Virus record (IMG/VR): IMGVR_UViG_3300030099_008323
Span: 122,104 to 186,103 of that record
Length of the DNA: 64,000 nucleotides
Source: a virus
Direction: 5' to 3' (one strand)
Shown here: positions 1 to 46,365 of the stretch, one piece after another
Position numbering within the stretch: position 1 is the first letter of the stretch
Layout: each line of letters opens with the position of its first letter
Program-made: the position numbers and the translations under genes
The notes under the pieces: model-generated
The model's input: only the letters and a program-made list of their open reading frames with translations
Told to the model about the DNA's origin: nothing
Databases searched by the model: none

Positions 1-930
1 ATTTGTACAAACATAAACATGGCCGTCTGCGCCAACGCAGGGTTGGATTTGCGATCCTAAACATTTTTTATAGTTTCTTCCATATAGAGATGGATCATTT
101 TCTAAATCTTGCAGCTTGTACCCATTAATTTGATATTTATCCCCTAATATTTCTTTAGCCTGCTTGAGCAAGGGCTCTACCTCTGTATTCCAAAAATCAA
201 TCTCTCTTTGTACACCCTCTTCTCTTTCACGATTCACAACCTCGGGTTTAAACTGGCAGTAGTCAACATCAAATTTACTAAAGTATTTAGCAAAATCTAC
301 AATCTCACTATAGGTGTCAGGAGTTATAACAAAACCAACACCTATAGTTATTTTTTTACCTTTATTATTATTAATTTGTACTAGTTTAGCTAAGTTATCA
401 GACATCTTTTGCCAGCCTTGATTTTTTCTAGCTCTTCTAACTGAATTATATGTTTCTGGGGTTCCAGCATCAATCGAAAAGCGCACCCAAGTCATATTTT
501 CAACAAATGTATCAAATAGATCCCACCTGTCAAGTAAAACACCGTTAGTGAAAATACCCATTTTAACAGAATTAGCTCCTAAAAATTGAATAGCCTCTTT
601 CAAATGTCTATTAAGTGTTGGTTCTCCGCCGCCGGTCCAATTTACTGCCCTAACTTTCATGTCAACAAAGTCTCTGCAAAGATCCATTAGGACCTTGCGG
701 GGCATAATTGATCGATCAAAAGTTTCTAAATTTTTTGATTCTGGAAGGTGTATATACGAGGATATACAAAAATAGCATCCGTGATTGCATGCATTGCTAG
801 GATCAACCTCCACTAAAACAGGATTTGAATAGCCTGTTTCTAAATGTTCTAAAGCTCTGTCGACATTAGCGATTATCTTTGCTTGGGGGTTGAAAATAAG
901 AGAATCATTTAATAAATCTTCAATTTTCAT
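1..930 (-). CDS. Radical SAM/SPASM-type protein (partial, runs off the left edge)
   Basis: Manual translation from ATG at 930: MKIEDLLNDS...DPSNACNHGCYFCIS (CxxxCxxC), later GGGEPT and ...QPCVGADGHVYVCTN; absent from the ORF track because truncated. Confidence 0.8.
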   Translation of the reverse strand, partial: MKIEDLLNDSLIFNPQAKIIANVDRALEHLETGYSNPVLVEVDPSNACNHGCYFCISSYIHLPESKNLETFDRSIMPRKVLMDLCRDFVDMKVRAVNWTGGGEPTLNRHLKEAIQFLGANSVKMGIFTNGVLLDRWDLFDTFVENMTWVRFSIDAGTPETYNSVRRARKNQGWQKMSDNLAKLVQINNNKGKKITIGVGFVITPDTYSEIVDFAKYFSKFDVDYCQFKPEVVNREREEGVQREIDFWNTEVEPLLKQAKEILGDKYQINGYKLQDLENDPSLYGRNYKKCLGSQIQPCVGADGHVYVCTN

Positions 931-1834
931 TTTTATTTTTTAGCCACTTTAAAAAATATTCGGTAGGATCTTTAAAATATTCACGTATCACGTCGTCAAA
1001 ATATCTTTTAGCTTTTTCAGCTCTTTGTTCCAACAATTTGTGGGGTATATTATTTATCTCCTGAAGACATTCTTTAATATATTCTGGGCTATTATCCTCC
1101 TTACATATTCTATAAACAAAACTAGTATCGTAAGTATCTTCACCAACTAAAAAATAATCATAATCTGATATTAATATTGGTACCCTATTATAATAGCAGC
1201 TCTCTAGCAACCTTACACTATCAATTCCAGATCCCCTAGGACACAAAGATATGCTACTTTGCAACATAGTATCGATGTAATCTTTTTGTACCTTTGATCC
1301 AATTTCAGATGGACCAGACCAAGTCCTATTGATATGAAGATTCTTATCTAAATCTGAATGATGAAGTGCATGGACCATCATTGCTCTAACAATATGATTT
1401 AAATATCCACGAAAACCAAAACTTTTTTTCCTGGGAAACTCATACTGTTCATTTTGATTATCAATAATATCCAATAAAAGATGAGAAAAAGTTGGTCTGG
1501 CAAAAAGATATTTAATATCTGAGTAAATCTTAAGTGGACCCATAGTTGTGATGATACAATTGTGAAGCCAATTAGGTATTTGCATTCCACCTTCACCTTC
1601 TATATCACATATATGCTTATCTTCATTTCCGTCAAAATATTCAAAATCAGATTTTTTAAAATTTTGATATTGATCATTGGGGATCTGTCCCATATAAAAA
1701 TAATCAGCTTCTTCCGGGCTGACTATTGTACAATGATCTCTAATTCCTTGCTCACTTAATGGCACCGTATTATAATAGATTTTAGTATCATCATGCACAT
1801 GTTTTTTTGCATTAGGATATACGTATAATTTCAT
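920..1834 (-). CDS. Exostosin-like (GT47) glycosyltransferase
   Basis: C-terminal SLCPRGSGIDSVRLLES...VPILISD motif typical of the exostosin family. Confidence 0.7.
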   Translation of the reverse strand: MKLYVYPNAKKHVHDDTKIYYNTVPLSEQGIRDHCTIVSPEEADYFYMGQIPNDQYQNFKKSDFEYFDGNEDKHICDIEGEGGMQIPNWLHNCIITTMGPLKIYSDIKYLFARPTFSHLLLDIIDNQNEQYEFPRKKSFGFRGYLNHIVRAMMVHALHHSDLDKNLHINRTWSGPSEIGSKVQKDYIDTMLQSSISLCPRGSGIDSVRLLESCYYNRVPILISDYDYFLVGEDTYDTSFVYRICKEDNSPEYIKECLQEINNIPHKLLEQRAEKAKRYFDDVIREYFKDPTEYFLKWLKNKNEN

Positions 1835-1836
1835 AT

Positions 1837-3705
1837 TTATTCCATCGATTCGCTAACATTAAAAATACTAGGCATTGGTGGATCCTCAGAAATAGGCAGA
1901 GGCTCTACAATCATATTTTCATAAAATTCTTCTCTAGGAAGATAAGGGTACATATCCTCTACTGGAGTACTCCAGCCAACTATTTTTGGCTCATATGTAT
2001 GGTATTCATGGCAATTAACGTCACAAACCATTGGGCCATCAAACTCTAGAAATTGTCTTATCTTGTCTCTAACTTGTTCATATGTATCCTCTCCAGTTAT
2101 AGTCATTGTAGGTACTCCATATGCGTCTGCAATTGCAATGAAGTTTGGCGGCGCATATCCTTTTGGGCCACATGCTTCACTTCTTCCTTCAAAGTTGACT
2201 TCTTGAAATGCTTTCGTAATTCCGTATATATGATTATTTAAAATAACTGTTTTAAGCTTAATATTGTAATTTAAAAGAGTCTGAAGCTCTTGAATATTCA
2301 TATTAAACCCACCGTCTCCAATAACACAAACAACATTTTGATCTTCGCTAGCAGCGAATACGCCTCCCATTGCTCCAGCAAAAGAAAAGCCCATAGGTGA
2401 ATTTCCGTTATTTGTATAATATCTTTGACCGGTCTTTGTTTTAAAAGCGTGGTTCAACACAACAATATTACCGCCACAGTCTCCTACCAACACATCATTG
2501 GATTTCATTTCCTCTGACAATATTCTTGCAAAAGCATATGGATGAACAGAGTCACCCTCCTTAAACATATCTTCCGTGACAGGATCATACTTCTCCTTCC
2601 AATCTTTTACTTTAGTCATCCACTTAGAGAAGTCTGGCAAATAAGAGCCGGCAGTAGAGTTATTGCAATATGCTAGCCTTTCTCTTAAGAGCTTTATAAA
2701 AAGCTTAGCATCTGAATGAATACACTCATCGAATGGAAGCTGCTGCCATTTTTTAACTAAATTAGCTTTGTCAATGTCAACCATATATTTTTTTGCTTCT
2801 CTAGCAAAAGTACTAGGCTCACCGCCAGTTATCCTACCAGATATTCTACTTCCAATAGCTAATATTAAATCAGAATTCTGTATACCAAAATTTCTTCCAG
2901 CGCCGCCGTATGTGCCGATTCTACCACCATAATATTCAAAATCAGAACAAACTATGTCAAGAGCGTTCCAAGTTGGAAAACAGGGTATCTGTAGTTCTCT
3001 AGCTAACTCCATAAAATCTTCATTTGCATCAGCAAGGCCCACGCCTGCTCCAATCATCAAGCAAGGCCTTTCAGAGTTTTTTAAATCTTCTATAAACTTA
3101 TCAATCTGAAAATTAATCTTGTCGACATTAAAAACTGGCTGGTTAATCTCTTTGTTGTAAGACCTAAGAGAATCAACCTCAACTTCCATTTTTGCCACAT
3201 CAATTGGTAAATCAATTAGTACAGGGCCCGGTCGTCCAGTAGTTGCAATGTGAATTGCCTTTTCCAGCTCATACCTGATGTCCTCTGGGTTTTCTACTAG
3301 TTTAGCATATTTTGTAATTGGTTCTACAATACTGACTATATCAGTCTCTTGAAATCCTATTTGCCTAATTGACTCATCAGGTCGCATGTATTGCGTCTTG
3401 ATTTGACCAGTGATAAATACACATGGAACTGTATCATAAAAACAATTGCCAATTGGTGTTACAAAGTTCATACCACCAGGACCACTGGTTGCAATAGACA
3501 CGCCATATTTTCCAGAAACCTTTGCATAGCCCTCTGCGGCAAAGCCACCAGCTTGCTCATGCATAACAGCAATATATCTGGTTTTATCATTTCTGGTGAA
3601 CGCATCAATCAAATGACCATTAGCTGCTCCATAAACTACAAAAACTTCTTTTATACCATCTTCTGCTAAGTGATCAATAACATAATCAGCAACTTTTTTT
3701 TTCAT
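1837..3705 (-). CDS. Thiamine-diphosphate-dependent enzyme, acetolactate-synthase-like (YerE-type candidate)
   Basis: MHEQAGGFAAEGYAK, TSGPGGMN, GRPGPVLIDLP and the ThDP motif GDGG...NN. Confidence 0.9.
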   Translation of the reverse strand: MKKKVADYVIDHLAEDGIKEVFVVYGAANGHLIDAFTRNDKTRYIAVMHEQAGGFAAEGYAKVSGKYGVSIATSGPGGMNFVTPIGNCFYDTVPCVFITGQIKTQYMRPDESIRQIGFQETDIVSIVEPITKYAKLVENPEDIRYELEKAIHIATTGRPGPVLIDLPIDVAKMEVEVDSLRSYNKEINQPVFNVDKINFQIDKFIEDLKNSERPCLMIGAGVGLADANEDFMELARELQIPCFPTWNALDIVCSDFEYYGGRIGTYGGAGRNFGIQNSDLILAIGSRISGRITGGEPSTFAREAKKYMVDIDKANLVKKWQQLPFDECIHSDAKLFIKLLRERLAYCNNSTAGSYLPDFSKWMTKVKDWKEKYDPVTEDMFKEGDSVHPYAFARILSEEMKSNDVLVGDCGGNIVVLNHAFKTKTGQRYYTNNGNSPMGFSFAGAMGGVFAASEDQNVVCVIGDGGFNMNIQELQTLLNYNIKLKTVILNNHIYGITKAFQEVNFEGRSEACGPKGYAPPNFIAIADAYGVPTMTITGEDTYEQVRDKIRQFLEFDGPMVCDVNCHEYHTYEPKIVGWSTPVEDMYPYLPREEFYENMIVEPLPISEDPPMPSIFNVSESME

Positions 3706-4724: not shown

Positions 4725-6278
4725 TTAATCTCCTAAAATTTTTCTTTTGAGACTTATTTTAGCAGTCTCAATAACGTTTTGTTCAGCTCTTTTTCCAAAT
4801 TTTTCTCTTAAAAGCTGTAAGTATTTTGGATTAGTATGGTATTTTGTCCAGGCTTCATCTCGAAACTTTAAAATTTGTGCAGCCGTAAGACTATCTGTTG
4901 GTAAATTTTGTGTATCGTAAGAATGCTGACTGTAACCAGTATAACTATCCGGCAATTTCATGCCCTTACTTTTTGCTTGTATATATAAAGGACTACCTGG
5001 GTATGCCATAGCTGTATAAAAATTAACCATTTCTGTATTTGACTCCATGGCGAAGTTTAGCGTATATTCTAAAGACTCCATAGTGTCCATAGGTAATCCA
5101 AAAATATAATTTGCCGCTATGTTTATTCCAGATGATCTCATGTTGTCCATTATATCACCAATCTTAACATCTTTAAAGTTATCTTTATGAACTTCTTTAC
5201 GTAAGATTTGGTCTGGATTTTCTATGCCTAGGCCGAGCCAATTAACTCCTGCCTTTTTAAGAGTGTCCAGGTATTTTGGCTTGCAGGTATCAATCCTAGA
5301 ATATGCCCAAATATTAAAATCATATTGTCTCTCTATAATCATTTGACATATTTTTTCAAAATGACGAGGGTTTAAAACAAAAAGTTCATCTGCGATCTTA
5401 ACGTTTTTAACACCTAGGCTTGCAATATAATCAAATTGATTAATTATAAATTCAGGTGACCAATACCTCCATACGTTACTTTTATCGCTAGCTACTCCAA
5501 TTGATGAGTCTGTTCTGTTGATGATGTTAATCATGCAGAAAGAGCATTTATATGGACAACCTAAACTGGTATACAAAGCAGCAAAAGGCTCTTTCTCTGT
5601 ATTGTTGGACCATGAATGCCATCCTGCTGTTCTGTACTTTTTTATATCAGGGAGCAAATCCCATGCCATTCCTGGTAAATCTACTTCAAGTTTATTCTTG
5701 GGCACTATTGATTGTGGCTTGTTTAAAACGATGCCTTCTTCTGTCTTGTATCCCAGGCCATCTACTTTTTTTAGCTGCACTTCATCAGAAAAATTAGTTA
5801 CTTGAAGAAAATTACTTATTGTATATACACCTTCATTTTGACATATATAGTCAACACAGCTCTCTGATAAGACTTCTCTTGGTAGCGCTGCGACGTGGCC
5901 GCCGACGAAGAGCACATTTGTATTGGGGCTAATTTTTTTTAATTCTTGAGCTGTAGCAATTGCACCCTCCATATTTTGAGTAGATGCACTAGGCTGCTGA
6001 CCATACACAACAAAACAAACAACTCTCGAATTAATATCTTTAATTTGTTGTGCTGCTGACAAATAATCTAATCTTTCAGCTTCGCAGTCTAATATAGCTA
6101 CACCAAAACCTTTTATACGACAATGGTTGGCTAACATCGCAGCCCAAATTGGAGGCTCAATAGCAGAGTGTTTGTTGCTCAGATCTTGATATATCGCCTT
6201 TGAGGCATTTGGGTGCACAAATAATATGTCTAAATTTCTCATATTCATCTTAATAGTTTGCATACCAAGGGCTTTCAA
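4725..6278 (-). CDS. B12-binding (class B) radical SAM protein
   Basis: N-terminal cobalamin-binding-like domain (GGHVAALP), TSLGCPYKCSFC, DELF, YIFGLP. Confidence 0.85.
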   Translation of the reverse strand: MKALGMQTIKMNMRNLDILFVHPNASKAIYQDLSNKHSAIEPPIWAAMLANHCRIKGFGVAILDCEAERLDYLSAAQQIKDINSRVVCFVVYGQQPSASTQNMEGAIATAQELKKISPNTNVLFVGGHVAALPREVLSESCVDYICQNEGVYTISNFLQVTNFSDEVQLKKVDGLGYKTEEGIVLNKPQSIVPKNKLEVDLPGMAWDLLPDIKKYRTAGWHSWSNNTEKEPFAALYTSLGCPYKCSFCMINIINRTDSSIGVASDKSNVWRYWSPEFIINQFDYIASLGVKNVKIADELFVLNPRHFEKICQMIIERQYDFNIWAYSRIDTCKPKYLDTLKKAGVNWLGLGIENPDQILRKEVHKDNFKDVKIGDIMDNMRSSGINIAANYIFGLPMDTMESLEYTLNFAMESNTEMVNFYTAMAYPGSPLYIQAKSKGMKLPDSYTGYSQHSYDTQNLPTDSLTAAQILKFRDEAWTKYHTNPKYLQLLREKFGKRAEQNVIETAKISLKRKILGD

Positions 6279-18431: not shown

Positions 18432-18508
18432 TGGTTGGCCCAACGGGACTTGAACCCGTGACACCCACTTTATAAGAATGGCGCTCTAACCTACTGAGCT
18501 ATGGGCCA
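18432..18508 (-). tRNA. tRNA-Ile(UAU)
   Basis: Hand-folded: acceptor TGGCCCA/TGGGCCA, D arm GCTC/GAGC, anticodon arm CCATT-CT[TAT]AA-AGTGG, T arm ACGGG-TTCAAGT-CCCGT, encoded 3' ACCA. Confidence 0.92.
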
Positions 18509-35569: not shown

Positions 35570-35773
35570 ATGCAAGATATAAACCCCGGCGATATAGTAA
35601 CACTTAAAGGTCTCAGCAAACAAAAAGAAAAACCCCTTGGAATTGTTAAAAGAAAGCTAGATAGAAAAACTTTTGAAATATTTTGGATTAACGAGGGAAT
35701 AGCAACAAGATTTGCTTTAGTTGATATGGCTAAATCTCATAGATTAGAAATTATTAGCCAAGCTGCTCAATAA
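35570..35773 (+). CDS. Small KOW/SH3-like beta-barrel protein
   Basis: NPGDIV...GIV...EIFW...LEIISQ, the same pattern as the early-region family. Confidence 0.5.
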   Translation: MQDINPGDIVTLKGLSKQKEKPLGIVKRKLDRKTFEIFWINEGIATRFALVDMAKSHRLEIISQAAQ

Positions 35774-36602
35774 TATCCTTCAAATCTAGACCGGCACAAT
35801 CAATTTTATTCCTTGTTAGATGATAGTGACAAACTACACCTTTGTATTTTCCCTTAGAGGCTTCTGGTACAACTCCATTGTTTGTCATGTTTTCATTAAT
35901 CATTGGTGTTTGAAGGGGAATATTGTAGTGTCCACACAAAACTTCAATTAGTTTTTTGTAAGCTTCAATTTGTATCCTATAATACCCTAAGTGCGGTTTA
36001 AGCCTGATGCCGTGAACTTTACTGTCTTTGCAAATCGGTCTAGGCCCGAAACCTCTTTTTTGATACCAGTCTTGATATTTTGTATAATAAGCATTTGAAA
36101 AATCAACACCAATAGAGTATTTGTTAACTTTTCCTGCATGCCAGGCAACATGGTTTGTATCAACATATTGATGGATCACACCATCATTGTCAATACAAAA
36201 ATGTGTAGATATTTTTCTCGCCTGTAAAACACGCTTACACCTTTCTGCAGACGTTGTTGCATCCCAGTGTGTAACAATCATATTTGGATTTCTCTCACGT
36301 CTCCATTTTCTGTAACAATTAGAAGGCATTAAATCTTGCTTAACATCCCACTCAATATCAACTTGTTGTCCGTTGATTAGTAAATAATTATCTGATTCTT
36401 GTAAATCTCGCTCAGCCAACAATCTTCTAAATGTATTAGGACCAACTTTGCCATCTACACTTAAATCATGTAACATTTGAAAATGTTTGATACTTTGTAT
36501 TAAATCAGAATTAATATCATGTATATTGGGGTTAAGCCAAGACGGATGCCACCCATATTTTTTCGATGATCTTTTATTGTAATTAATTAATAACCATTCC
36601 AT
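35754..36602 (-). CDS. Endolysin: peptidoglycan-binding domain + Amidase_2 N-acetylmuramoyl-L-alanine amidase
   Basis: FQ..HDLSVDGKVGPNT; VTHWD; STHFCID.DG; AWHAG..N..SIG; H...NKIDC. Confidence 0.85.
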   Translation of the reverse strand: MEWLLINYNKRSSKKYGWHPSWLNPNIHDINSDLIQSIKHFQMLHDLSVDGKVGPNTFRRLLAERDLQESDNYLLINGQQVDIEWDVKQDLMPSNCYRKWRRERNPNMIVTHWDATTSAERCKRVLQARKISTHFCIDNDGVIHQYVDTNHVAWHAGKVNKYSIGVDFSNAYYTKYQDWYQKRGFGPRPICKDSKVHGIRLKPHLGYYRIQIEAYKKLIEVLCGHYNIPLQTPMINENMTNNGVVPEASKGKYKGVVCHYHLTRNKIDCAGLDLKDIIEQLG

Positions 36603-36606
36603 TACA

Positions 36607-37158
36607 TCAACCTCTCAATCTTATATATATTTTTTTATTTTCATCGCTTTCAGTACCAAGAGTCATTTGAATTGATTTTAAATATGGCTTAGATAAGCTG
36701 CCTTTAGAATTAAAATCATTTATTTGTTGCATTGAAAAAAAACCATATTCTGTGTGTTCATCGCTAAGCTTTACCTCGCCACCACCAAATGCAGCCTGAA
36801 AAAATACTTTGTTGCCGTGGTTGTAATGAAGCGCTTTTGGTTCAAACACATTAAGTCCTGTTTCTTCGAACACCTCTCTTTCCAAAGCAGACAAAATATT
36901 CTCGTCGCTTTTCATATGTCCACCAGGCAAATCCCAGCCCATATCATTTTTTAATAAAAGTACTTTTCCATTTCTGTGCATAACAACTTTAACTGATTTT
37001 GATAGATCCTCTCCGGTTGCTTGTTGTTTGTCTGCTGGATATATATTTTTAACATATCCTAAATTATTTCCAATTGTTCCAGCTAGGCTCGGGCGATCTC
37101 CACCAAAATATGTGAGTTCATTAATATAGCCCCTCCAACTTTCAAATAATTTTTTCAT
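36607..37158 (-). CDS. Nudix hydrolase with MKKLFESWR leader
   Basis: Nudix box GGHMKSDENILSALEREVFEETGL; WDLPGG; LSDEH. Confidence 0.85.
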   Translation of the reverse strand: MKKLFESWRGYINELTYFGGDRPSLAGTIGNNLGYVKNIYPADKQQATGEDLSKSVKVVMHRNGKVLLLKNDMGWDLPGGHMKSDENILSALEREVFEETGLNVFEPKALHYNHGNKVFFQAAFGGGEVKLSDEHTEYGFFSMQQINDFNSKGSLSKPYLKSIQMTLGTESDENKKIYIRLRG

Positions 37159-37161
37159 ATG

Positions 37162-38472
37162 CTATTTTATCTCTTCAGGTGGCCCGGTGAAGGTGTAGGA
37201 TGAATTCTCAAGTTTTCTAATAGCCGGTATTACTTCATCGTATAGCTCTTTTACTCTTTTTCTAGCATTCTTATATCCTATTTTTGCAGATTCATAGTTT
37301 TTTTCCCAGTTTTTCTTCTCATTTTTATCAGTGCTAGGGTCATCGACATCAGGCTTAGCAATATTTTTTTTGTCACTAATGTATTTTTTTACATTTTCAT
37401 CAATGCCATATAATCTTACATGGAAGTGGTGAAAATGATTTTTTTCATGCCTAACTTTTGTCCCAAATATTTTTCTACTCAGCCACCTTTTTGATCTTTT
37501 TCCTGCTTTGATATCCTGCTTAAGCTTTTGTTTAATAGCAGCAATAATTTTTTCATCTATAAATATATACTCAACTATAAATTCTGTGCCTGCGCCCGGA
37601 CCATACAAGCAATGCGCTATGAAATTTATACATGCATCAATATCAATTTTTGATACGTCCCTACCTAGATTATCAAAATTCCAAGACTCTTTAGAGCCTC
37701 TTCTTTTATCTGAAACACTCATTTTTACTTTTCTTGTCGGTACGTATCCCTTTAAAGGCACATCACCTGTTATTTCTTTTCCTTTGAATTCTTGTTCCGA
37801 TAAAGTTGGTACTGACATATCAACGTCTAGACCCCATCTATGACTGCCATGGCCGTAGATCTTTGTACCTAGCTTATATCTACCGATATCTAGTTTGGAT
37901 ATGTCTTCAACAAACCATGGCGCATATTTTGCAACAGATGGGTTTACTTCAAGACTATTTAAAAACCTTATCATAGTTGGCCATCCCCATCTTCTATTGT
38001 TAGCTTCTTTCACTTCAACGACACTATTACCATTAAATTTTTTCAGGCCGGCCTTTGAGAATTCCTTTGGTGTTGGTAATGATGGTGGCGAGGTAAAGCT
38101 TGATAATTTTGCTGCAGCAAATTCTAGATACCTTAAATCGTCCTCCATCAACAGATATTTGTCTTGTACAACTCTTGCTATATCACTAGGATCAAGAAAT
38201 CCACGTATGTAGTACGATAATTCAACTGATTTCTTAACAAACTCCTCTCCTAGGCCTTTATCTTTTGCTTGTGATAAATACCACTTCCTAGCACGAACAT
38301 TACTCATAGCCCGGGCAACTTCCATAACCGCCTCAACATAATGATCTTCTGTGGGTTTATCTGGTGGTAGCTTTCCTAGTTTTGGATGATTTATTCCCTT
38401 AAGAGTTTTTGCTAGTGAAGAGTTATTTTGCTCTCCTATATAGGCGCGCCAATTTTCAAATAGTTTTTGCAT
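37162..38472 (-). CDS. MepA-like murein endopeptidase with MQKLFENWR leader
   Basis: HGSHRWGLDVD and HFHHFHVRL match the MepA/LAS zinc-peptidase motifs. Confidence 0.65.
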   Translation of the reverse strand: MQKLFENWRAYIGEQNNSSLAKTLKGINHPKLGKLPPDKPTEDHYVEAVMEVARAMSNVRARKWYLSQAKDKGLGEEFVKKSVELSYYIRGFLDPSDIARVVQDKYLLMEDDLRYLEFAAAKLSSFTSPPSLPTPKEFSKAGLKKFNGNSVVEVKEANNRRWGWPTMIRFLNSLEVNPSVAKYAPWFVEDISKLDIGRYKLGTKIYGHGSHRWGLDVDMSVPTLSEQEFKGKEITGDVPLKGYVPTRKVKMSVSDKRRGSKESWNFDNLGRDVSKIDIDACINFIAHCLYGPGAGTEFIVEYIFIDEKIIAAIKQKLKQDIKAGKRSKRWLSRKIFGTKVRHEKNHFHHFHVRLYGIDENVKKYISDKKNIAKPDVDDPSTDKNEKKNWEKNYESAKIGYKNARKRVKELYDEVIPAIRKLENSSYTFTGPPEEIK

Positions 38473-38473
38473 A

Positions 38474-38923
38474 CTATAGATCTCCAGATCTTACTGCCTC
38501 AAATTTATATTGACTCTCACATGAATAAGCTACGCTAAATCGCTGCATGACTGCTGATAAATCACCAAATAGCTGTTCTGAATTTTCTGTTGCACTCCCT
38601 ACAGTCCAATTAAGTTTCATTATCCACTCTCCATCGTCACAATAAAAAATAGATTCTGTAGCACAAATTTCACCATTCCAGTAATCCTCTCTTAACTCGC
38701 AACCAAAACGATCATTAATAATTACAACACCTTCGTCAATTTTAACATCTAGCTCCCCTAGTCTTCCACAGTCGCCACTAATTTCCCTAGTAACCATTTT
38801 ATATAACCCAGTTTGATCTTCTTGACTGGCTACACAATCATCTATAATATTTGTGCCTGTGCACATTATCATAAAATTACCAGCCAACACAATCAGGAGT
38901 AAAATTTTAAATATTTCTTTCAT
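38474..38923 (-). CDS. Exported/lipoprotein-like Cys-containing protein
   Basis: Hydrophobic signal ending ...MIMC; several Cys. Confidence 0.55.
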   Translation of the reverse strand: MKEIFKILLLIVLAGNFMIMCTGTNIIDDCVASQEDQTGLYKMVTREISGDCGRLGELDVKIDEGVVIINDRFGCELREDYWNGEICATESIFYCDDGEWIMKLNWTVGSATENSEQLFGDLSAVMQRFSVAYSCESQYKFEAVRSGDL

Positions 38924-38942
38924 AATAATAAATAGTCAATTA

Positions 38943-39212
38943 TTACTTAAAAACTTTTTCTTTAGCTGTCTCAAGAAGCTTGGGTAAAAAACTTTTTTTA
39001 AGCTTCATAAGCCTACCAAATTTTACCCTGTCTCTAGCGTCTGTATAAAGTGTCGTAGGTTTTTTTATCTCGCCATCAATTATTTGATCACTAAAATCAT
39101 AGAATTTTGACTTTGGTTGCTTACTTAATACCTCCGGACAAAACCATGGTAATAGCAGCGAAAAAATAGCTGCTATTGCCAAAATTATAATTAATTTACT
39201 CAGTTTACTCAT
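38943..39212 (-). CDS. CglF/GltF-like (myxobacterial gliding-motility) exported protein
   Basis: Signal peptide then YDFSDQIIDGEIKKP..LY..AR...FGRL.KLK.SF.PKL..TA, recalled as the CglF DF.D..I.GE..KP pattern. Confidence 0.6.
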   Translation of the reverse strand: MSKLSKLIIILAIAAIFSLLLPWFCPEVLSKQPKSKFYDFSDQIIDGEIKKPTTLYTDARDRVKFGRLMKLKKSFLPKLLETAKEKVFK

Positions 39213-39224
39213 ATGTTTCTCCTT

Positions 39225-39830
39225 TTAAATATTAAAAGCCCGCATCATTCTCCTTGCACTGATAATCATCGCTGAGTGCGCAGGCGTCCAGCCACGATAC
39301 TTATGGCCCTCATGATCAGCGTCATACGTACCAAATTTAGCCTTAAGGGCTAGATGCACTAATTCATGTGTAAGAGAACTTTCAGATATTTTATAATCGT
39401 ATCCTCTCCAGACCCAAATTATATTCTGTCCTTCAACCTTACCAATTATTGTTCGTGAAGTAAACAGCTCTCCATTTAAAGAAAATCCTTTATTACTTAC
39501 TTTTTTACTATTGCCCCAACGTATCATAACTTTCTGTAGCATACCTCGTACAGCAAAGTCTCTGTCACCAAAATATTCAACCCACTTGTGGTAAAAGATC
39601 ATTAGAGCTAGGGCTGTTTTATGTTTTGGATAAATATTACAGTTTGGCATTATTTGACTAGCATTTTCAAAAAACGGAATTATAATCATTTGAGGCATTT
39701 TTTCATCAGGCATACATAAAGAATTTTTGTATAATTTTTTATTATCATTTGTAAAAAAAACATTAGGGCCATGTCCTGAACATGTGACACAAAAACTTAA
39801 AGCCAATAAAAATATTATTTTTCTTAACAA
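39225..39830 (-). CDS. Lipoprotein-like HExxH protein
   Basis: Signal peptide with Cys; LTHELVH. Confidence 0.5.
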   Translation of the reverse strand: MLRKIIFLLALSFCVTCSGHGPNVFFTNDNKKLYKNSLCMPDEKMPQMIIIPFFENASQIMPNCNIYPKHKTALALMIFYHKWVEYFGDRDFAVRGMLQKVMIRWGNSKKVSNKGFSLNGELFTSRTIIGKVEGQNIIWVWRGYDYKISESSLTHELVHLALKAKFGTYDADHEGHKYRGWTPAHSAMIISARRMMRAFNI

Positions 39831-39842
39831 ACACTGAGTCTC

Positions 39843-40070
39843 CTAGCATTCTGCTTTTTTCTTGGTTACCATAAGGGCTCTAGTTACAACATCAGCTTTT
39901 AGGTCTTCTAAAATATGCGAAAAATTTTCAATATCTGATTTTGTTATTTCATCCATCATTGCCCAAAGAGAATCAACTTCATCTTTCAATAGTTCATTCT
40001 CTTTTTTAGCTTTCTTAATTTGTTCCTCAAGCGATTCAATTTCTTTTTGCAGTTTATCTAAATTTTTCAT
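39843..40070 (-). CDS. Coiled-coil hypothetical protein
   Basis: Heptad pattern; RBS upstream. Confidence 0.55.
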   Translation of the reverse strand: MKNLDKLQKEIESLEEQIKKAKKENELLKDEVDSLWAMMDEITKSDIENFSHILEDLKADVVTRALMVTKKKAEC

Positions 40071-41968
40071 TAATTTTCATCCTTACATATCTCATCTAAG
40101 ATCTTCATCAAACTATTATACATTGTAGTTGGGTTGTTTGACAACAAGAACCATTCTCCGCCTCCGGCATCAGATAATTGCTCCCATTTTTGCTTATCAG
40201 ATCCTGATCTAGAAAAAGTATATAACTTAAGTTGCGATGTTGTTCCCAAGGCGCTTTTAACATCATCTAGTTCTAGAACGGGATCCATATAGCTTTGAGG
40301 GTCCTCATCGCTAAACACAATTATTATCTTTTCGACGCCGGGACGCCAATTAACATTAAAATTTTGAAGGGGTGGTTCCGACTCAACCACCTGAACCCCA
40401 GTGCCTGTTTGGTAAACCAAGCCTTGCCAATTTAAATCTATTATAGGATATATCAAATTTGAAGAAATATTATGTATCGATAAATATATTGCATCTAACA
40501 ACATTTCACGCATGCCATTCATTCCATTAGGACTAGAATCCAGCCCAGACATAGAATTTAAAAATTCTGTAAATCCTGTCAAATTCTGTACCATCTCAAG
40601 TCTTTCATAAAAAAGAGGACCTGTTGGCGAAGGCGCAGGCCCTCTTAGCATTCCCCATTGTAAAACTTCTTCATCACTAAAGTCTGCAGCAAATTTATTT
40701 AAAGCAATCATTACAGCATTTATCTCATCACCCATAGACCCAGACCAATCAACAATAAAAAGAATATCAGTTTCTTTCATTTTTTCGCCGTAGTCAGTTA
40801 CACCATCACAGTCATCATCAATTCCATTGCAAATTTCATTTTGCGGTGTTACTTCGCCTAGACACATACCACCAACAAACTGACCAAGTTCATCCCAATT
40901 ACCCCAAGAGCCGGCATCACAAACCATCTCTCCAGGCTCACATATTCCAACAGAAGCTGTTTCTAGAGGTCCTGTATAACATCCAGAAATTAAATTTTCA
41001 TCGACTAGTTGATTACAATTATCGTCAAAATTATTACATTTTTCATCTTCAAGTGGGATACCAACAAAAGGATCACACGAAGCAGGATCTTGTAATTCAG
41101 GAGGTAACCAGTAACAAAGAGCGTAACAAGGGGTTGTTATAATTTCTGCGCATTGTGTATCGACACATTCGCATGTTTTAAAACCTTGGCCACAAATAAG
41201 TGGGCTCTCTTCGCAGGGAAACAAAGTACCAACGTCTTGTATTGTACACGTGCACTCTAGCCCTTCATCAATTTGATTATCACAATCGTTATCAAACCCG
41301 TCACATATTTCATTTTGAGGTTGTTTTGCCGTGCAAGAAATCCAATTTCCATCATCACATACCTCATAGCCATTACCGCAAACAGTAGAACATGACTGAA
41401 TTAAATCTTCATCAGTCTCACCGTTACAATCATTGTCTACCCCATCACAAACTTCAGGAGGGACAATTCCGCATTCACCACAAACATTTAATTGATTTTC
41501 ATCAATCAAATCATCACAGTCATCATCGATGCCGTTACAAGATTCCTCATAACATTCTGTTACACAATCAGTGTACTGTATCTTGCCTTTGTTGCACACT
41601 TTATCTTGTGTGCCAGGATATCCGTCATCTGTTGTACATTCTAAAGACGCAATCAAATATTGTGTTGGATCGCACTCCATATGCTCTGTACAGGGTGTCT
41701 CTGAATGAAGTGTAGGAGGATCTTCACAAACATTCATACAAATTTCTTTTTGCCATATAGAGTCTAGTGGAGGACAAAAATACATTTTACATTCAATGCA
41801 TTCAGGACCATTAGTATCTGGTGTATCTTCCCATGGAATAATTTCTGGCTCTTCCACTACGCCAGCATTAGAGTCTAGATCTTCAGTCCCGGCGCTCCCG
41901 TCATTCGCAGTACTGCAGCCATATTGCAACACAACCAATGCTAAAAAAGCCACCAATAACTGCTTCAT
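40070..41968 (-). CDS. Lipoprotein with five Cys/Asp-rich MopE-type repeats and C-terminal vWA domain
   Basis: Lipobox LQYGC; five E.C(D/N)..D(N/D)(D/N)C repeats; DILFIVDWSGSM MIDAS; IIVFSDE. Confidence 0.85.
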   Translation of the reverse strand: MKQLLVAFLALVVLQYGCSTANDGSAGTEDLDSNAGVVEEPEIIPWEDTPDTNGPECIECKMYFCPPLDSIWQKEICMNVCEDPPTLHSETPCTEHMECDPTQYLIASLECTTDDGYPGTQDKVCNKGKIQYTDCVTECYEESCNGIDDDCDDLIDENQLNVCGECGIVPPEVCDGVDNDCNGETDEDLIQSCSTVCGNGYEVCDDGNWISCTAKQPQNEICDGFDNDCDNQIDEGLECTCTIQDVGTLFPCEESPLICGQGFKTCECVDTQCAEIITTPCYALCYWLPPELQDPASCDPFVGIPLEDEKCNNFDDNCNQLVDENLISGCYTGPLETASVGICEPGEMVCDAGSWGNWDELGQFVGGMCLGEVTPQNEICNGIDDDCDGVTDYGEKMKETDILFIVDWSGSMGDEINAVMIALNKFAADFSDEEVLQWGMLRGPAPSPTGPLFYERLEMVQNLTGFTEFLNSMSGLDSSPNGMNGMREMLLDAIYLSIHNISSNLIYPIIDLNWQGLVYQTGTGVQVVESEPPLQNFNVNWRPGVEKIIIVFSDEDPQSYMDPVLELDDVKSALGTTSQLKLYTFSRSGSDKQKWEQLSDAGGGEWFLLSNNPTTMYNSLMKILDEICKDEN

Positions 41969-41979
41969 AACCTAAACCC

Positions 41980-42270
41980 TCATGGACCCCACTTATTAAA
42001 CAAATATCCCTTCACGTCAATTTCTTCGGTATCCTCTAGATTTTTTTGATATTCTGAGTCTAAAAACAAAGAGGCGAGAGATTTACCTGCCTTGTAAGAT
42101 GAAGAAAATTCTTCTTTTAATTTCTTACTATAACCATATTCAGCTCTAAAAGATGGATTGAGTTTCCACTTGCCTGACCAAACGTTCAATTTTACAGATC
42201 CAATAAATTGATCTTGCACATAGATCTCGTTTTCAACTCCATCATTTATTTCTTTAAAGCTTATTTTCAT
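41980..42270 (-). CDS. Hypothetical protein
   Basis: 96-aa ORF. Confidence 0.5.
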   Translation of the reverse strand: MKISFKEINDGVENEIYVQDQFIGSVKLNVWSGKWKLNPSFRAEYGYSKKLKEEFSSSYKAGKSLASLFLDSEYQKNLEDTEEIDVKGYLFNKWGP

Positions 42271-42331
42271 ATTAATAACTAGTTTCTATATTGTTCCTAT
42301 AATGAATTTTATTTATATTTAAGGAGAAAAC

Positions 42332-42634
42332 ATGAATTATAGGCTTATTCACAGAGGTGATAAAGACTTTGAACCTACATTAGATTTTTTAGAAAAAAAA
42401 TACTTTCATAATGGCGGCGGCCCAGACGCAGAAGAAATTTGGAATAAATGCAAACAAGAAGTTAAAGAAGATGGGTGGGTGAGTTTTTACGGGACTAATT
42501 CACAAGTATCGAACTTAATCAAAAGAAATAGAATAGGAATTAAAGCTGTTAGATACGATAAAGACGGCGCAGAATTGTTTTATGATTCAAAACATGTAAA
42601 GTCTTTTTTTACAATGGTTAAGATTAGAAAATAA
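42332..42634 (+). CDS. Hypothetical protein
   Basis: AAGGAG RBS, 100 aa. Confidence 0.55.
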   Translation: MNYRLIHRGDKDFEPTLDFLEKKYFHNGGGPDAEEIWNKCKQEVKEDGWVSFYGTNSQVSNLIKRNRIGIKAVRYDKDGAELFYDSKHVKSFFTMVKIRK

Positions 42635-42636
42635 AT

Positions 42637-45600
42637 TTATCTAATCCATCTCTTACTTTTTAGAAAAGCTAGGAACCTCTGTGCTCTCATTCTGTCATCT
42701 TTACTAAATCTAGATTTTAATCCGGATAAAATTTTAAAATTATGAATCCAAGCCTGATTAATATTTTCTGGATTAAAATTTAATTTATTTAATTTTTTTG
42801 ATTTTGGTAGTTCACTAGTGGCTATACTAGGTGTGGAGATATCGTCATTGTCTACAGCTTGGTCAGAAACCACATCCTCATCTGTAATGAGAATATCTTT
42901 AAACTCTTCATATCCTTCTCTTTTTTTAACATTTTTAGGACTATACATATTTTGCCACAATTTATATACATCTGGAGTAAGTGCAGTTCTTTCTAACAAA
43001 TCTTCAATATGGCGGTCGTGGTAGTAAGAGTCTTTATACACTTTTTCAGGGCTCCAATTTTTTCTTAATTCTAATTCATAAATTAAGCTCTCTAGAGGCA
43101 AAAGACGCTTGAAAGCCCCTGGTTTATCAGAAAGATGTGTTGATGCCGCGGCAGAAACATTTAGTGTGGCATTATATTTTAAAATAGCTCCTGTTTCTAA
43201 TTCTTTGGGTTTATCAGGCCAGTACCCAGTTTTCTGATACACTGTATATTTTATTAATCTGTTTATTTCTTCGGCTGTTAGACGTAATATTGCAGCGCCA
43301 TTGTCAACTTTTTCAAATCCTTTTTTAAGCGTTTCTCTCTGTAAGCCCTCAGTAATTGCCATAAATTTAGTAGCTGTATGACAGAATTCCCAGTAGTATG
43401 CCCTCTCATAAAATTTGTGTTTACTGCTTTTTTTCTTTGCTTTAAGCATGTCTAGTGCTCTCGTGACGAGGCCGGCTTCAGGATAAAATATTAAAGCCAG
43501 CGGAGCAGAAATTGGATGCATTAGTGGCTTGTTAGCTTTGATAAACTCTTCAACATTTTTTGTTTTATCTGAGCTTTCATATTCTTGCAAGACGTCAAGC
43601 CAAGTTTTATTTGTAAAGCCCATCGCACCTATTTCCTTACCTCTCTCTATAGCATCTTTATTTAAATACTCAGATATTGGCTTCCCATCTGGAGACAGAT
43701 TCAAAGATAAATTTGAATTTACAAATTTTTCTATTGAACTCTTAGTCATAGTTCTTGATGTGATGCTTGTTATTTTTGTAGCAGCCTCCACAGATCTTTT
43801 TAATATTTCGTGAAACTCACGTGGTTCATATTTATCTCTTTCAAAACATGCCGCAAGGCCTTGATAGAGCTTCTCAAAATTTTCTGCAAAAATATCGATA
43901 TTATTTTCTATCTGAGAAAAGTCTTTTTGCATTTTTCGCTCCGGCCCAAAATAATTGCCAGATTCATAATCATGCCATCCATTTTCTTCATATTTTCCAT
44001 TTTTATAATCTTGTATAATACGATTATATATCCTAATATCCTCTGTTTTGGTTGGGGATAGGCCATAGCATTGTGGCTCAGCCGGCCCCAGATCGAATGA
44101 TTGAGCCATTAACCAACTTTTTCTCATTTCACATGCAAAAGAAAAAGTACCAGGCTGCAAATATGATGGGCATCTACATAGATAGCCTATAACACCAATT
44201 GGATCAAACATCATGAAGAACGCTGTAATACCCCGGAAAGCCGGGGTTTGTATTACGTTTCCTTGCTCTAATTCATTAAGGTCGGAAAGATAAAAGAACG
44301 GGGAGAGTATTTTAAGTACTCTTTGTGCGCCTTTCATTAAGGTGCCTGTTAGCGCTAGTAAATCATCAGTTACCCTTAAAAATAATTTTCTATCACTAAT
44401 TGTTTCCATCTGCACAAATATCTTCTTTGCAGCTTCTTTTGCTTGCTTGAACTCTGCATCACTTGCAAACACATCATTAGCATTAAGCTCATCTAAAAAC
44501 TTCATGTATTTTTTTTCTGCACCACGAACATTGAGGGTCTTACCAGATTTTTTCATCTGTCTAAACATCGCCTCTAATGTAAGATTCGGATCGATATTCA
44601 TTCCTTTGGTAGCTGGTATCATATCTAAAACATCAGCGCCAGGTAAATATCTAAGATATTTCGCTTTGCGAGGGCCCGTAAACGTCTCTAGGGCTGATTT
44701 TTTTACTTTAACTTTATCGGTTTGATATTTTTTAGCTAACTTTCTGAGATCTTCAACTTGTTTGCTTAAAAATGTATTATTTACTCCTGCTTTTTTTCTA
44801 TCATATGGTCCATTAGAAAGCAAGGCGCCTATACCAACACGTGGAAAAAGTGGCATTTTTTGATCACTAGTGCCGCCTAACTGTGCTAGCATTTCTTTAA
44901 TTACATCAAGTTCAGCGCCACTTACATCAGTAAATATCAGTCGACCAGATTCAAGTTGGTCTAGTAGTGTTCTATACCTCCAAACATCACCTGTTCTTCT
45001 GCTACTGAAAAAATCAAAAACTTGTCCACGCGCCCCTGCTCCAGCAATATTATCTGTTGCTTCAGCTAGCCATCGACCTCTTCCATCTGGCTTAACTTTG
45101 AAATCAACACCCCATATATAATTTGTTGTTTCATGAACAAAATCGTATGTTGTTGATATGTCAATATTCATTCTATCAGGAAGAGAGGTATTCAAAATAT
45201 CAGACAGCCTCACAGATAGGCCAGAGTTTTCTGGCTTCCATGATCTTCTTAGCGCGCCAAGTTTATTAATTTCATTATTAATTTGAGCTGCAGCACTAGC
45301 CCAAGCGCCGTTCGCATTGCTAGCTAGCTTATAGTTTACAGACTTACCTTTTATGTCAGATATCGTTCCATCGTTTTGAAATTTTATAGCTGATTTTTCA
45401 TTCTCAGGCAGGGCGTCTATGAGATTATCGATCCAGCTGCTATCAAATCTAGGATCAACTGTGTGGCGTATGATTGGTCTTTCAGAATTTCTAATTCTTC
45501 TTTGAGCCGCTAAAAGTGCATCATCACCTGCAGAAGTTGCATTACGTACTTCTCTTTCTAGAGAAATGAGAAATTTACCGCCACTATTCACCGCCTCTGG

Positions 45601-46365
45601 CGATCGGCTAGTCATATTTTCTAAAGCTTGCACGCCATGGCCAGTATAAGCAAAAGAGCCAATAACTTTAGGCTCCACTCCTTTTCTTTGAAATATTGTA
45701 ACTGGACTTTTTTTATCGCTGTATTTAACTACAGTTGCGCGCGCAACAATATTGTCATTGGGAGGCCCGGTAATATTAACTATTTTTAAAATTTTTGCTT
45801 GATTCTTGACTACTGAATCTAATTCTTTCATATTAACAAATAGCTGAAAAAATCTATCAATGCCATCAATCGCTCTTCTTCCTGCTGCATCAGCTGAGCT
45901 AGCTATTTCTTGATACTTAGGACTATTTTTAAGTACTTTGTCGTAAGTTTGATAAAATTCATATAATGGCCATTTTCCAGCAGCAACTTCATATATTACA
46001 ATATCCAATATAGAATCGTAATTTGCACCAACAATATCATTAAGCGCACCTAAGATAAATTGATAAATTGCAGTCTCTTTTAAAGCTTCTAAGGCTCTTA
46101 TGGCATCTTTCCCACCTAAATCGTATATATACTGCAGCAGCCAATCTCTAGCTTTTTTACCTGTTTGAACTAAACCACCTATAGGCGTCTCAACATCTGC
46201 GGTAGCTGGCTCATTTACCGGCACTTCAGCTAGCTTTTCTCGTGCTCTAGCCATTTCTCCTGCTAGGCCTGGATCCGTTGGTCGCGGCGATCGCCCCTTG
46301 AATTCAATAATTTTTTTAGCCTCATGGAGGATGAAGCTTTCAAGATCTGCTTTATTTAATTTCAT
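42637..46365 (-). CDS. 1242-aa leader-bearing protein of unknown function (putative internal/ejection protein)
   Basis: MKLNKADLESFILHEAKKIIE leader variant; no recognisable catalytic motif. Confidence 0.6.
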   Translation of the reverse strand: MKLNKADLESFILHEAKKIIEFKGRSPRPTDPGLAGEMARAREKLAEVPVNEPATADVETPIGGLVQTGKKARDWLLQYIYDLGGKDAIRALEALKETAIYQFILGALNDIVGANYDSILDIVIYEVAAGKWPLYEFYQTYDKVLKNSPKYQEIASSADAAGRRAIDGIDRFFQLFVNMKELDSVVKNQAKILKIVNITGPPNDNIVARATVVKYSDKKSPVTIFQRKGVEPKVIGSFAYTGHGVQALENMTSRSPEAVNSGGKFLISLEREVRNATSAGDDALLAAQRRIRNSERPIIRHTVDPRFDSSWIDNLIDALPENEKSAIKFQNDGTISDIKGKSVNYKLASNANGAWASAAAQINNEINKLGALRRSWKPENSGLSVRLSDILNTSLPDRMNIDISTTYDFVHETTNYIWGVDFKVKPDGRGRWLAEATDNIAGAGARGQVFDFFSSRRTGDVWRYRTLLDQLESGRLIFTDVSGAELDVIKEMLAQLGGTSDQKMPLFPRVGIGALLSNGPYDRKKAGVNNTFLSKQVEDLRKLAKKYQTDKVKVKKSALETFTGPRKAKYLRYLPGADVLDMIPATKGMNIDPNLTLEAMFRQMKKSGKTLNVRGAEKKYMKFLDELNANDVFASDAEFKQAKEAAKKIFVQMETISDRKLFLRVTDDLLALTGTLMKGAQRVLKILSPFFYLSDLNELEQGNVIQTPAFRGITAFFMMFDPIGVIGYLCRCPSYLQPGTFSFACEMRKSWLMAQSFDLGPAEPQCYGLSPTKTEDIRIYNRIIQDYKNGKYEENGWHDYESGNYFGPERKMQKDFSQIENNIDIFAENFEKLYQGLAACFERDKYEPREFHEILKRSVEAATKITSITSRTMTKSSIEKFVNSNLSLNLSPDGKPISEYLNKDAIERGKEIGAMGFTNKTWLDVLQEYESSDKTKNVEEFIKANKPLMHPISAPLALIFYPEAGLVTRALDMLKAKKKSSKHKFYERAYYWEFCHTATKFMAITEGLQRETLKKGFEKVDNGAAILRLTAEEINRLIKYTVYQKTGYWPDKPKELETGAILKYNATLNVSAAASTHLSDKPGAFKRLLPLESLIYELELRKNWSPEKVYKDSYYHDRHIEDLLERTALTPDVYKLWQNMYSPKNVKKREGYEEFKDILITDEDVVSDQAVDNDDISTPSIATSELPKSKKLNKLNFNPENINQAWIHNFKILSGLKSRFSKDDRMRAQRFLAFLKSKRWIR

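Follow-up and report, generated by a model that had tools for sequence, protein, structure and literature searches.

A phage-borne GltF/CglF-family protein resembling the F subunit of a Glt-type cluster of Myxococcota

The 64,000-nucleotide (nt) stretch of DNA analysed here (the window) comprises bases 122104-186103 of a 186,103-bp IMG/VR virus record that is rated 100% complete, and it encodes a small protein of 89 amino acids (aa) that belongs to the GltF/CglF family. Judged by sequence comparison, the phage gene is an orthologue-grade copy of the F subunit of one type of Glt cluster, cluster I, of Myxococcota. By a slight balance of probability, we favour the explanation that the exported phage linker takes the place of the host F subunit in a Glt-type trans-envelope machine. 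In Myxococcus xanthus, GltF is essential for gliding, is periplasmic, and is found at focal adhesions (PMC3169522). No paper linking GltF or CglF to phages was found.

A sequence-only reading of this DNA had suggested a match of the 89-aa open reading frame (ORF) to CglF/GltF and had quoted a motif in it. The motif is present as quoted, YDFSDQIIDGEIKKPTTLYTDARDRVKFGRLMKLKKSFLPKLL, and a hidden Markov model check against CglF/GltF returned significant similarity. The only NCBIfam match of the ORF was NF033764 (CglF), with an E-value of 6.5e-10 and an alignment of residues 31-85 of the ORF to positions 33-87 of the 88 positions of the model. Like the M. xanthus protein GltF, which is the same as CglF (MXAN_4868, NF033764) and whose family is restricted to myxobacteria and close relatives, the phage protein is small and has a type I signal and, at its C-terminal end, a conserved domain of some 55 residues. 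Unlike it, the phage gene comes without gltC, gltD, gltE and gltG, and its score of 38.9 bits lies under the equivalog cut-off of 90 bits curated by NCBI; copies from metagenome-assembled genomes (MAGs) were tested too and gave 28.9-48.9 bits. All 20 aligned family members matched NF033764 and no other model. A good Shine-Dalgarno sequence, AAAGGAG, lies upstream of the phage gene. The N-terminus of the protein is basic and then hydrophobic, and the homologs close the signal with an AxA-type site just before the conserved domain; we predict an exported protein in which a type I signal peptide precedes a mature domain of about 56 aa, and this domain is very strongly conserved. A total of 1772 homologs, mostly marine, are present in the protein database.

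The subtype of the phage protein is best seen against the Myxococcota genome G001, which has two paralogous Glt-type clusters. Cluster II resembles the M. xanthus models more closely (scores of 300 bits for GltC and 48.9 bits for CglF), and its F subunit is directly followed by GltG (300.8 bits). Cluster I diverges further (195 bits for GltC and 37 bits for CglF) and has a helicase gene after F. With the cluster-I F subunit (L015:6817-7128), the phage 89-aa protein shares 82% identity over the whole mature domain (E-value 1e-32), and with the F subunit of cluster II in the same genome it shares 21% (E-value 8e-4); its identity to other F loci that close a GltC-D-E-F run is 57-84%. In the marine genome G003, cluster I starts with a myxobacterial outer-membrane beta-barrel (TIGR04565), and the order of the set is outer-membrane beta-barrel, GltC-like, GltD-like, GltE-like and F. 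The phage protein has the same invariant residues and the same length as the cluster-I F proteins (L015:6817-7128 and L275:7283-7543). Unlike their genes, each the last of a glt-type run, that of the phage is solitary and lies in AT-rich DNA next to genes for phage exported proteins. The suggested family was thus real, but the subtype is that of cluster I. Since identity to the F subunit closest to that of M. xanthus is as low as 21%, a link to gliding as such does not follow. Furthermore, M. xanthus has several paralogous clusters (nfs/G3, G4 and G5) that are not needed for motility (Luciano et al., PMC3169522), so that gliding cannot be assumed for cluster I.

In cells, a scan of one genome per prokaryote species yielded 93 confirmed loci of the F gene, nearly all of them in Myxococcota or in MAGs labelled 'Deltaproteobacteria'; one locus that carries the label Oligoflexales belongs to the same GTDB phylum sample. 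Among the 80 loci used for neighbour counts, the F gene comes after GltC-, GltD- and GltE-like genes in 51, 60 and 63 loci, respectively, and the shortfall occurs mostly at truncated contigs. The family profile matches 99 of the 301 sampled Myxococcota genomes. The GC content of the cellular carriers is 49-72%; when low-GC Myxococcota carriers were sought, the 30 best loci all had 49-71% GC. In one Myxococcota MAG, a second F-like gene (L002:8496-8939) is arranged in tandem, directly after the first. A divergent F-like gene without glt neighbours was also found in L081, a contig of 38% GC binned as Candidatus Woesearchaeota, which is probably mis-binned and has nothing else in common with the phage.

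In viruses, the gene was found in at least 100 viral contigs with a GC content of 34-47%, many of them 120-284 kb long, and 80 viral loci were kept for neighbour counts. None of these 80 loci has GltC, GltD or GltE, and five large phage records, four of them rated 100% complete, lack both GltC and a TonB_C domain. Four of the large carriers are related to the phage, with terminases 47-74% identical to its own; three carry a rating of complete, and terminal repeats are present in one. A comparison with 50,697 deposited phage genomes gave no DNA or protein match to the region, to the 89-aa protein or to the 632-aa protein encoded in the same region. The median identity between F copies is 0.60 for virus-cell pairs, 0.63 for cell-cell pairs and 0.65 for virus-virus pairs, and the per-column conservation of viral and cellular copies is correlated (rho 0.79) along a span that includes the strand region and the C-terminal helix. 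In a 60-column tree, 74 of the 81 viral copies fall in viral-only groups; this tree is weakly resolved, and the donor clade therefore cannot be named. Capture of the 89-aa gene by the phage from Myxococcota is, from these comparisons, the best reading.

A mis-assembled cellular fragment or a decaying passenger gene would be an extremely improbable source of these data. Besides tail-fibre genes inside the window, the genome carries genes for the major capsid protein, portal, large terminase, baseplate wedge, DNA polymerase, ribonucleotide reductase, DnaB-like helicase and GroEL; the 89-aa gene is intact, has the GC content of the phage (about 33%), and is kept across the viral contigs, including the record with terminal repeats. 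The terminase and the capsid protein are closest to those of Flavobacterium phage vB_FspM_immuto (44% and 49% identity, respectively), and the other closest cultured phages are Microcystis phage Mel-JY01 and Rhodothermus phage RM378. Based on these nearest neighbours, the phage is a distant T4-like myovirus.

The way in which the phage protein might work can be considered with an AlphaFold-based model of the M. xanthus proteins, in which the C-terminal helix of GltF lies in a groove of GltC, a tetratricopeptide repeat (TPR) protein, and a beta-strand of GltF pairs with the TonB-like domain of GltG; GltF is predicted to bridge GltC, GltD and GltG (PMC11761067). The predicted GltC- and GltG-contact regions both fall within the conserved phage part, for which reason we read the phage protein as a probable working linker. 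Additionally, the 82% identity to a Myxococcota subunit, together with the same column constraints, argues for the same partners. In the explanation that we favour, the 89-aa protein would be made with a Sec signal peptide from within a tight run of genes for exported proteins and cell-wall enzymes, and a peptide of about 56 residues would be released into the periplasm. This peptide would dock on the host partners as the host F subunit does, with its strand on the GltG-type domain and its helix in the GltC-type groove. The phage linker would then replace or top up the host linker, and the outer- and inner-membrane parts of the machine would stay coupled under phage control.

Phages are known to carry single subunits of host machines, such as the D1 protein encoded by cyanophage psbA, and the phage exclusion lipoproteins T5 Llp and Cor are exported proteins that act on the host envelope. 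Unlike psbA/D1, Llp and Cor, the phage part considered here would be a periplasmic adaptor of a motor-driven trans-envelope machine, and no other case of a phage-borne periplasmic adaptor of such a machine was found in the literature that we searched. Exclusion is also a function to be weighed for the 89-aa protein. As a competitor, the phage linker would fill the docking sites on GltC and GltG and jam or rewire the host machine; motility or surface transport would be stopped, a machine-dependent receptor hidden, or entry barred to competing phages that make use of the TonB/Tol-like energy coupling of the machine. We consider this fairly unlikely. It would suit a phage gene that is alone, without GltC, GltD and GltE partners, and that has exported proteins for neighbours, as is often the case for phage exclusion lipoproteins. 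The YbgF/CpoB model also matches the GltC- and GltD-like proteins, so that the Glt parts are related to Tol-Pal, a system that phages and colicins exploit. Nevertheless, the same positions are conserved in the phage protein as in the cellular proteins at both predicted interfaces, whereas in an inhibitor one interface should be retained and the other lost or altered. Moreover, there is no sign of early expression, the usual time for exclusion genes.

The 89-aa gene is one of nine minus-strand ORFs, located from 42270 down to 35754, with intergenic gaps of -1 to 19 nt (1-4 nt among the downstream genes, 35754..38472); no minus-strand terminator-like site was found downstream in the run before 35235-35219. 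The run of exported ORFs that the sequence-only reading had described at 38474-41968 is in place: four of the nine ORFs (632, 201, 89 and 149 aa) have a basic N-terminus and a hydrophobic segment (Kyte-Doolittle 12-residue mean of 2.75-3.12), and the same hydropathy check gave no signal-peptide-like N-terminus for the other five. Given that an M74-like endopeptidase and an amidase endolysin are encoded in the same tight run, with no terminator-like site between, the peptide could instead be a late accessory of lysis or egress, which would be made along with the endolysin and would help to undo or make use of the trans-envelope link as the cell opens. A TATAAATA motif, a candidate T4-type late promoter, is located upstream of the run, and no spanin genes were recognised. 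However, an amidase was found within 8 kb in only 8 of the 80 GltF-centred viral loci, and breaking the link would need no ortholog-grade conservation of the host linker, which leaves a lysis role improbable. The TATAAATA motif was rejected as a T4-type late promoter; it is neither enriched in the window nor conserved in the relatives, and no expression timing is therefore taken from it.

The 632-aa protein of the same run was compared with Pfam, where it matched MopE (PF11617) with an E-value of 3e-15 and 56.6 bits, over a cut-off of 27. Three stretches pass alone and five are readable by eye with the repeat motif C-x-[DN]-G-x-D-[DN]-[DN]-C, in line with the five MopE-type repeats noticed earlier. 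The protein has 43 Cys residues (6.8%) and an N-terminal Cys-rich region. Its C-terminal domain has a vWA/integrin I-domain fold (AlphaFold2 and Foldseek, probability 1.0): in this part, the model has a predicted local distance difference test score (pLDDT) of 70-89, the template modelling (TM) score relative to the target is 0.6-0.7, and the best matches are integrin alpha I-domains. The Pfam VWA (PF00092) score of 21.3 bits lies under the 23.8 cut-off. The motifs DWSGS and S-D-E are invariant in 23 homologs. The Thr of the MIDAS (metal ion-dependent adhesion site), part of 'ST' in most homologs, is Gly or Met in the phage and its three nearest relatives; the intact MIDAS vWA domain claimed from the sequence alone thus holds for the fold, DWSGS and S-D-E, and does not hold for the Thr.

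The same reading had called the 632-aa protein a lipoprotein, and this is plausible from its sequence. An invariant Cys ends the hydrophobic stretch in 23 of 23 homologs, but the lipobox, LQYG-C, departs from the canonical [LVI][ASTVI][GAS]C; relatives often have Y, F, V or T at position -1. In the 149- and 201-aa ORFs, the residue at -1 before the Cys is M and T, respectively.

A further proposal, that the 632-aa protein mimics CglB and CglD, vWA lipoprotein adhesins of the M. xanthus gliding machine, found no support from homology. The protein matched zero NCBIfam families at E<=1, including the CglD model NF033765, and its family profile matched nothing among the PDB sequences. In CglD, acidic repeats of the COMP type are placed ahead of the vWA domain (preprint 10.1101/2023.10.19.562135). 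Like CglD, the 632-aa protein is exported, Cys-rich and possibly lipidated, with acidic Cys/Asp repeats before a C-terminal vWA domain with DxSxS; unlike CglD, it is half the size, its repeats are of the MopE and not the COMP type, and its MIDAS Thr is replaced. The resemblance is one of domain layout only. A CglD-like adhesin is encoded in G003 a few kb upstream of cluster I, in divergent orientation, and was detected by NF033765; this 1088-aa protein (L274:7739-11005) has choice-of-anchor D domains and a MIDAS/CglD-like vWA domain. Its similarity to the 632-aa protein is confined to 31 residues around the MIDAS. With this MIDAS-local similarity only and no NF033765 match, the 632-aa protein was rejected as a CglD orthologue.

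More than 120 near-full-length relatives of the 632-aa protein were found, at 51-83% identity, all of them unnamed. Among the 301 Myxococcota genomes, 161 match the protein, through the MopE repeats only, and the vWA domain alone matches one, G009, whose class is sampled by two genomes only. The 556-aa protein of G009 (L271:997-2667), the one collinear cellular counterpart that was found, aligns with phage residues 131-628 (30% identity, E-value 2e-45). Both proteins have five MopE stretches, DxSGS, T/S-D-E and a C-terminal Cys; unlike the phage protein, that of G009 has no N-terminal Cys-rich region. Its gene is flanked by genes for a DapD-like protein and an M20 peptidase, not by glt genes. 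In the explanation that we favour, the 632-aa protein is a separate, lineage-conserved, exported adhesin-like protein, and it may be displayed on the infected cell.

Several observations weigh against a working linker in Myxococcota, or against one that acts together with the vWA protein. The shared conservation of viral and cellular F copies is inflated because the same two peptide patterns were used to collect the two sets. The cluster-I machine may be unrelated to gliding, and co-transcription with the endolysin also fits a role at lysis. All four related large records carry both the GltF-like and the vWA genes, but these are adjacent in only two; in the other two, they are 26 and about 99 kb apart. 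Of the 52 vWA-centred loci, 12 have a GltF-like gene within 10 kb. The non-adjacent relatives rule out an obligatory adjacency of the two genes, and with adjacency in only a subset, a joint function is weakly supported. With respect to the host, the phage has 33% GC and the related contigs have 34-47%, versus 49-72% in the cellular carriers; the hosts of the nearest cultured phages are Flavobacterium, Microcystis and Rhodothermus; and the MAG-binned copies are labelled Nitrospinota and Pseudomonadota. A more ambitious version of the linker explanation, in which a marine phage clade would equip myxobacteria with a linker and a MopE/vWA cargo or adhesin and so redirect surface transport or gliding, is in our view unlikely.

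These host observations are relevant to the possibility of a non-myxobacterial host, for instance in the Bacteroidota or among other marine Gram-negative bacteria, where the peptide would be redeployed onto the C-terminal domains of TonB/TolA and onto CpoB-like TPR proteins. The GC gap between the phage and the cellular carriers would suit such a host, as would the Bacteroidota and cyanobacteria infected by the nearest cultured phages. The exported proteins, additionally, often have an acidic residue two or three positions past the Cys, which we take to resemble the surface lipoprotein signals of Bacteroidota. However, cellular homologs of the 89-aa protein are found essentially only in Myxococcota, and the MopE repeats and the G009 homolog point to the same phylum. 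T4-type phages can be far AT-richer than their hosts, and the tRNA set of the phage fits. This set comprises five tRNAs (Lys-UUU, Arg-UCU, Met-CAU, Leu-UAA and Ile-UAU, reading AAA, AGA, AUG, UUA and AUA) at 736-3087 and 140535-140611 of the genome, the last site being 18432-18508 of the window. Within their codon families, AGA, UUA and AUA account for 36-52% of the codons used by the phage, versus 10-13% in a GC-richer Myxococcota carrier. No transfer-messenger RNA was found in the phage genome. Overall, we regard a non-myxobacterial host as quite improbable. A (marine) Myxococcota host is supported indirectly by the two gene families that link the phage to this phylum, namely the GltF-type family and the MopE repeats with their G009 homolog, and by the tRNA set.

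The positions of the nine ORFs of the run and of a conserved element at its start are given in Table 1.

Table 1. Features of the minus-strand gene run in the window.
Feature	Position in the window	Strand	Basis
GltF/CglF-family small exported protein, 89 aa, cluster-I F subtype (predicted)	38943..39212	minus	NF033764; identity to L015:6817-7128
Exported Cys-rich MopE/vWA protein, 632 aa, possible lipoprotein	40070..41968	minus	PF11617, VWA, fold
Coiled-coil protein without signal peptide, 75 aa	39843..40070	minus	Only weak coiled-coil family matches
Exported HExxH protein, 201 aa, probable small zinc metallopeptidase	39225..39830	minus	Motif conservation
Cys-rich protein, 149 aa, exported or membrane-anchored	38474..38923	minus	Hydrophobic N-terminus, 7 Cys
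ORF of 96 aa heading the run	41980..42270	minus	Homolog in L082 and L090
M74-like murein endopeptidase	37162-38472	minus	Pfam/PHROGs matches
NUDIX hydrolase	36607-37158	minus	Pfam/PHROGs matches
Amidase_2 endolysin with peptidoglycan-binding domain	35754-36602	minus	Pfam/PHROGs matches
Conserved ACTAGTTATT motif	42274..42283	minus	Directly upstream of the start codon that opens the run

The 201-aa ORF has the motifs H155-E-x-x-H159 and D170-x-D-H-E174, both invariant in seven viral homologs, and its relatives in the ESM Atlas form viral-only clusters. Its AlphaFold2 model has a pLDDT of 74.7; the fold search was not significant (best E-value 0.13, selecase), and the weak top matches are mostly zinc peptidases. 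Its motifs suggest that the protein is probably a small zinc metallopeptidase. The start of the 75-aa gene and the stop of the 632-aa gene share 1 nt, and 14 of the 80 viral loci have a homolog of the 75-aa protein close to the GltF-like gene. Scans of Pfam, PHROGs and NCBIfam gave zero family matches for the 149- and 96-aa ORFs; for the former, a homolog was found in only one of the related viral loci compared. The M74-like endopeptidase and the NUDIX hydrolase have a common N-terminal leader (MQKLFENWRAYIGE and MKKLFESWRGYINE, respectively) and no signal peptide.

The ACTAGTTATT motif has a single exact copy in the window. A ACTAGTTATTRRTATG element at the first start codon of the run is kept in four related phages, while the first gene differs among phages; besides the window copy, it is located at ~4795-4810 in L090, ~4835-4850 in L082 and ~5825-5840 in L084. 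This conserved element could be a promoter, a leader or a cassette junction. After the element, L090 (~4810-4900) and L082 (~4850-4940) have a mini-ORF for a hydrophobic peptide of about 30 aa with one transmembrane helix, which is absent from the phage. A divergent 100-aa ORF (42332-42634, plus strand) has no family match; 23 of the 80 viral loci have a homolog of it close to the GltF-like gene, which makes it the most frequent neighbour. Just upstream of the run, a 1242-aa ORF (42637-46365) has no Pfam, PHROGs or NCBIfam match.

With regard to its meaning, a stand-alone adaptor would extend the host-machine parts carried by phages from metabolism to cell-surface mechanics. If the linker and the adhesin both acted as proposed, viral proteins or glycans would be displayed, and the sticking, the movement and the neighbour contact of infected cells would be altered, which would amount to viral control of host surface behaviour. 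The comparison of the neighbouring vWA protein corrects the tempting reading of it as a copy of CglB or CglD, and the subtype of the F subunit draws attention to a second Glt-type cluster that is widespread in uncultured Myxococcota. The phage peptide of 56 residues may offer a natural minimal probe for the contacts between GltC, GltF and GltG, which are so far only structure predictions. The GltF-like gene may also serve as a host marker for an abundant, hostless clade of marine far-T4-like phages of 180-280 kb.

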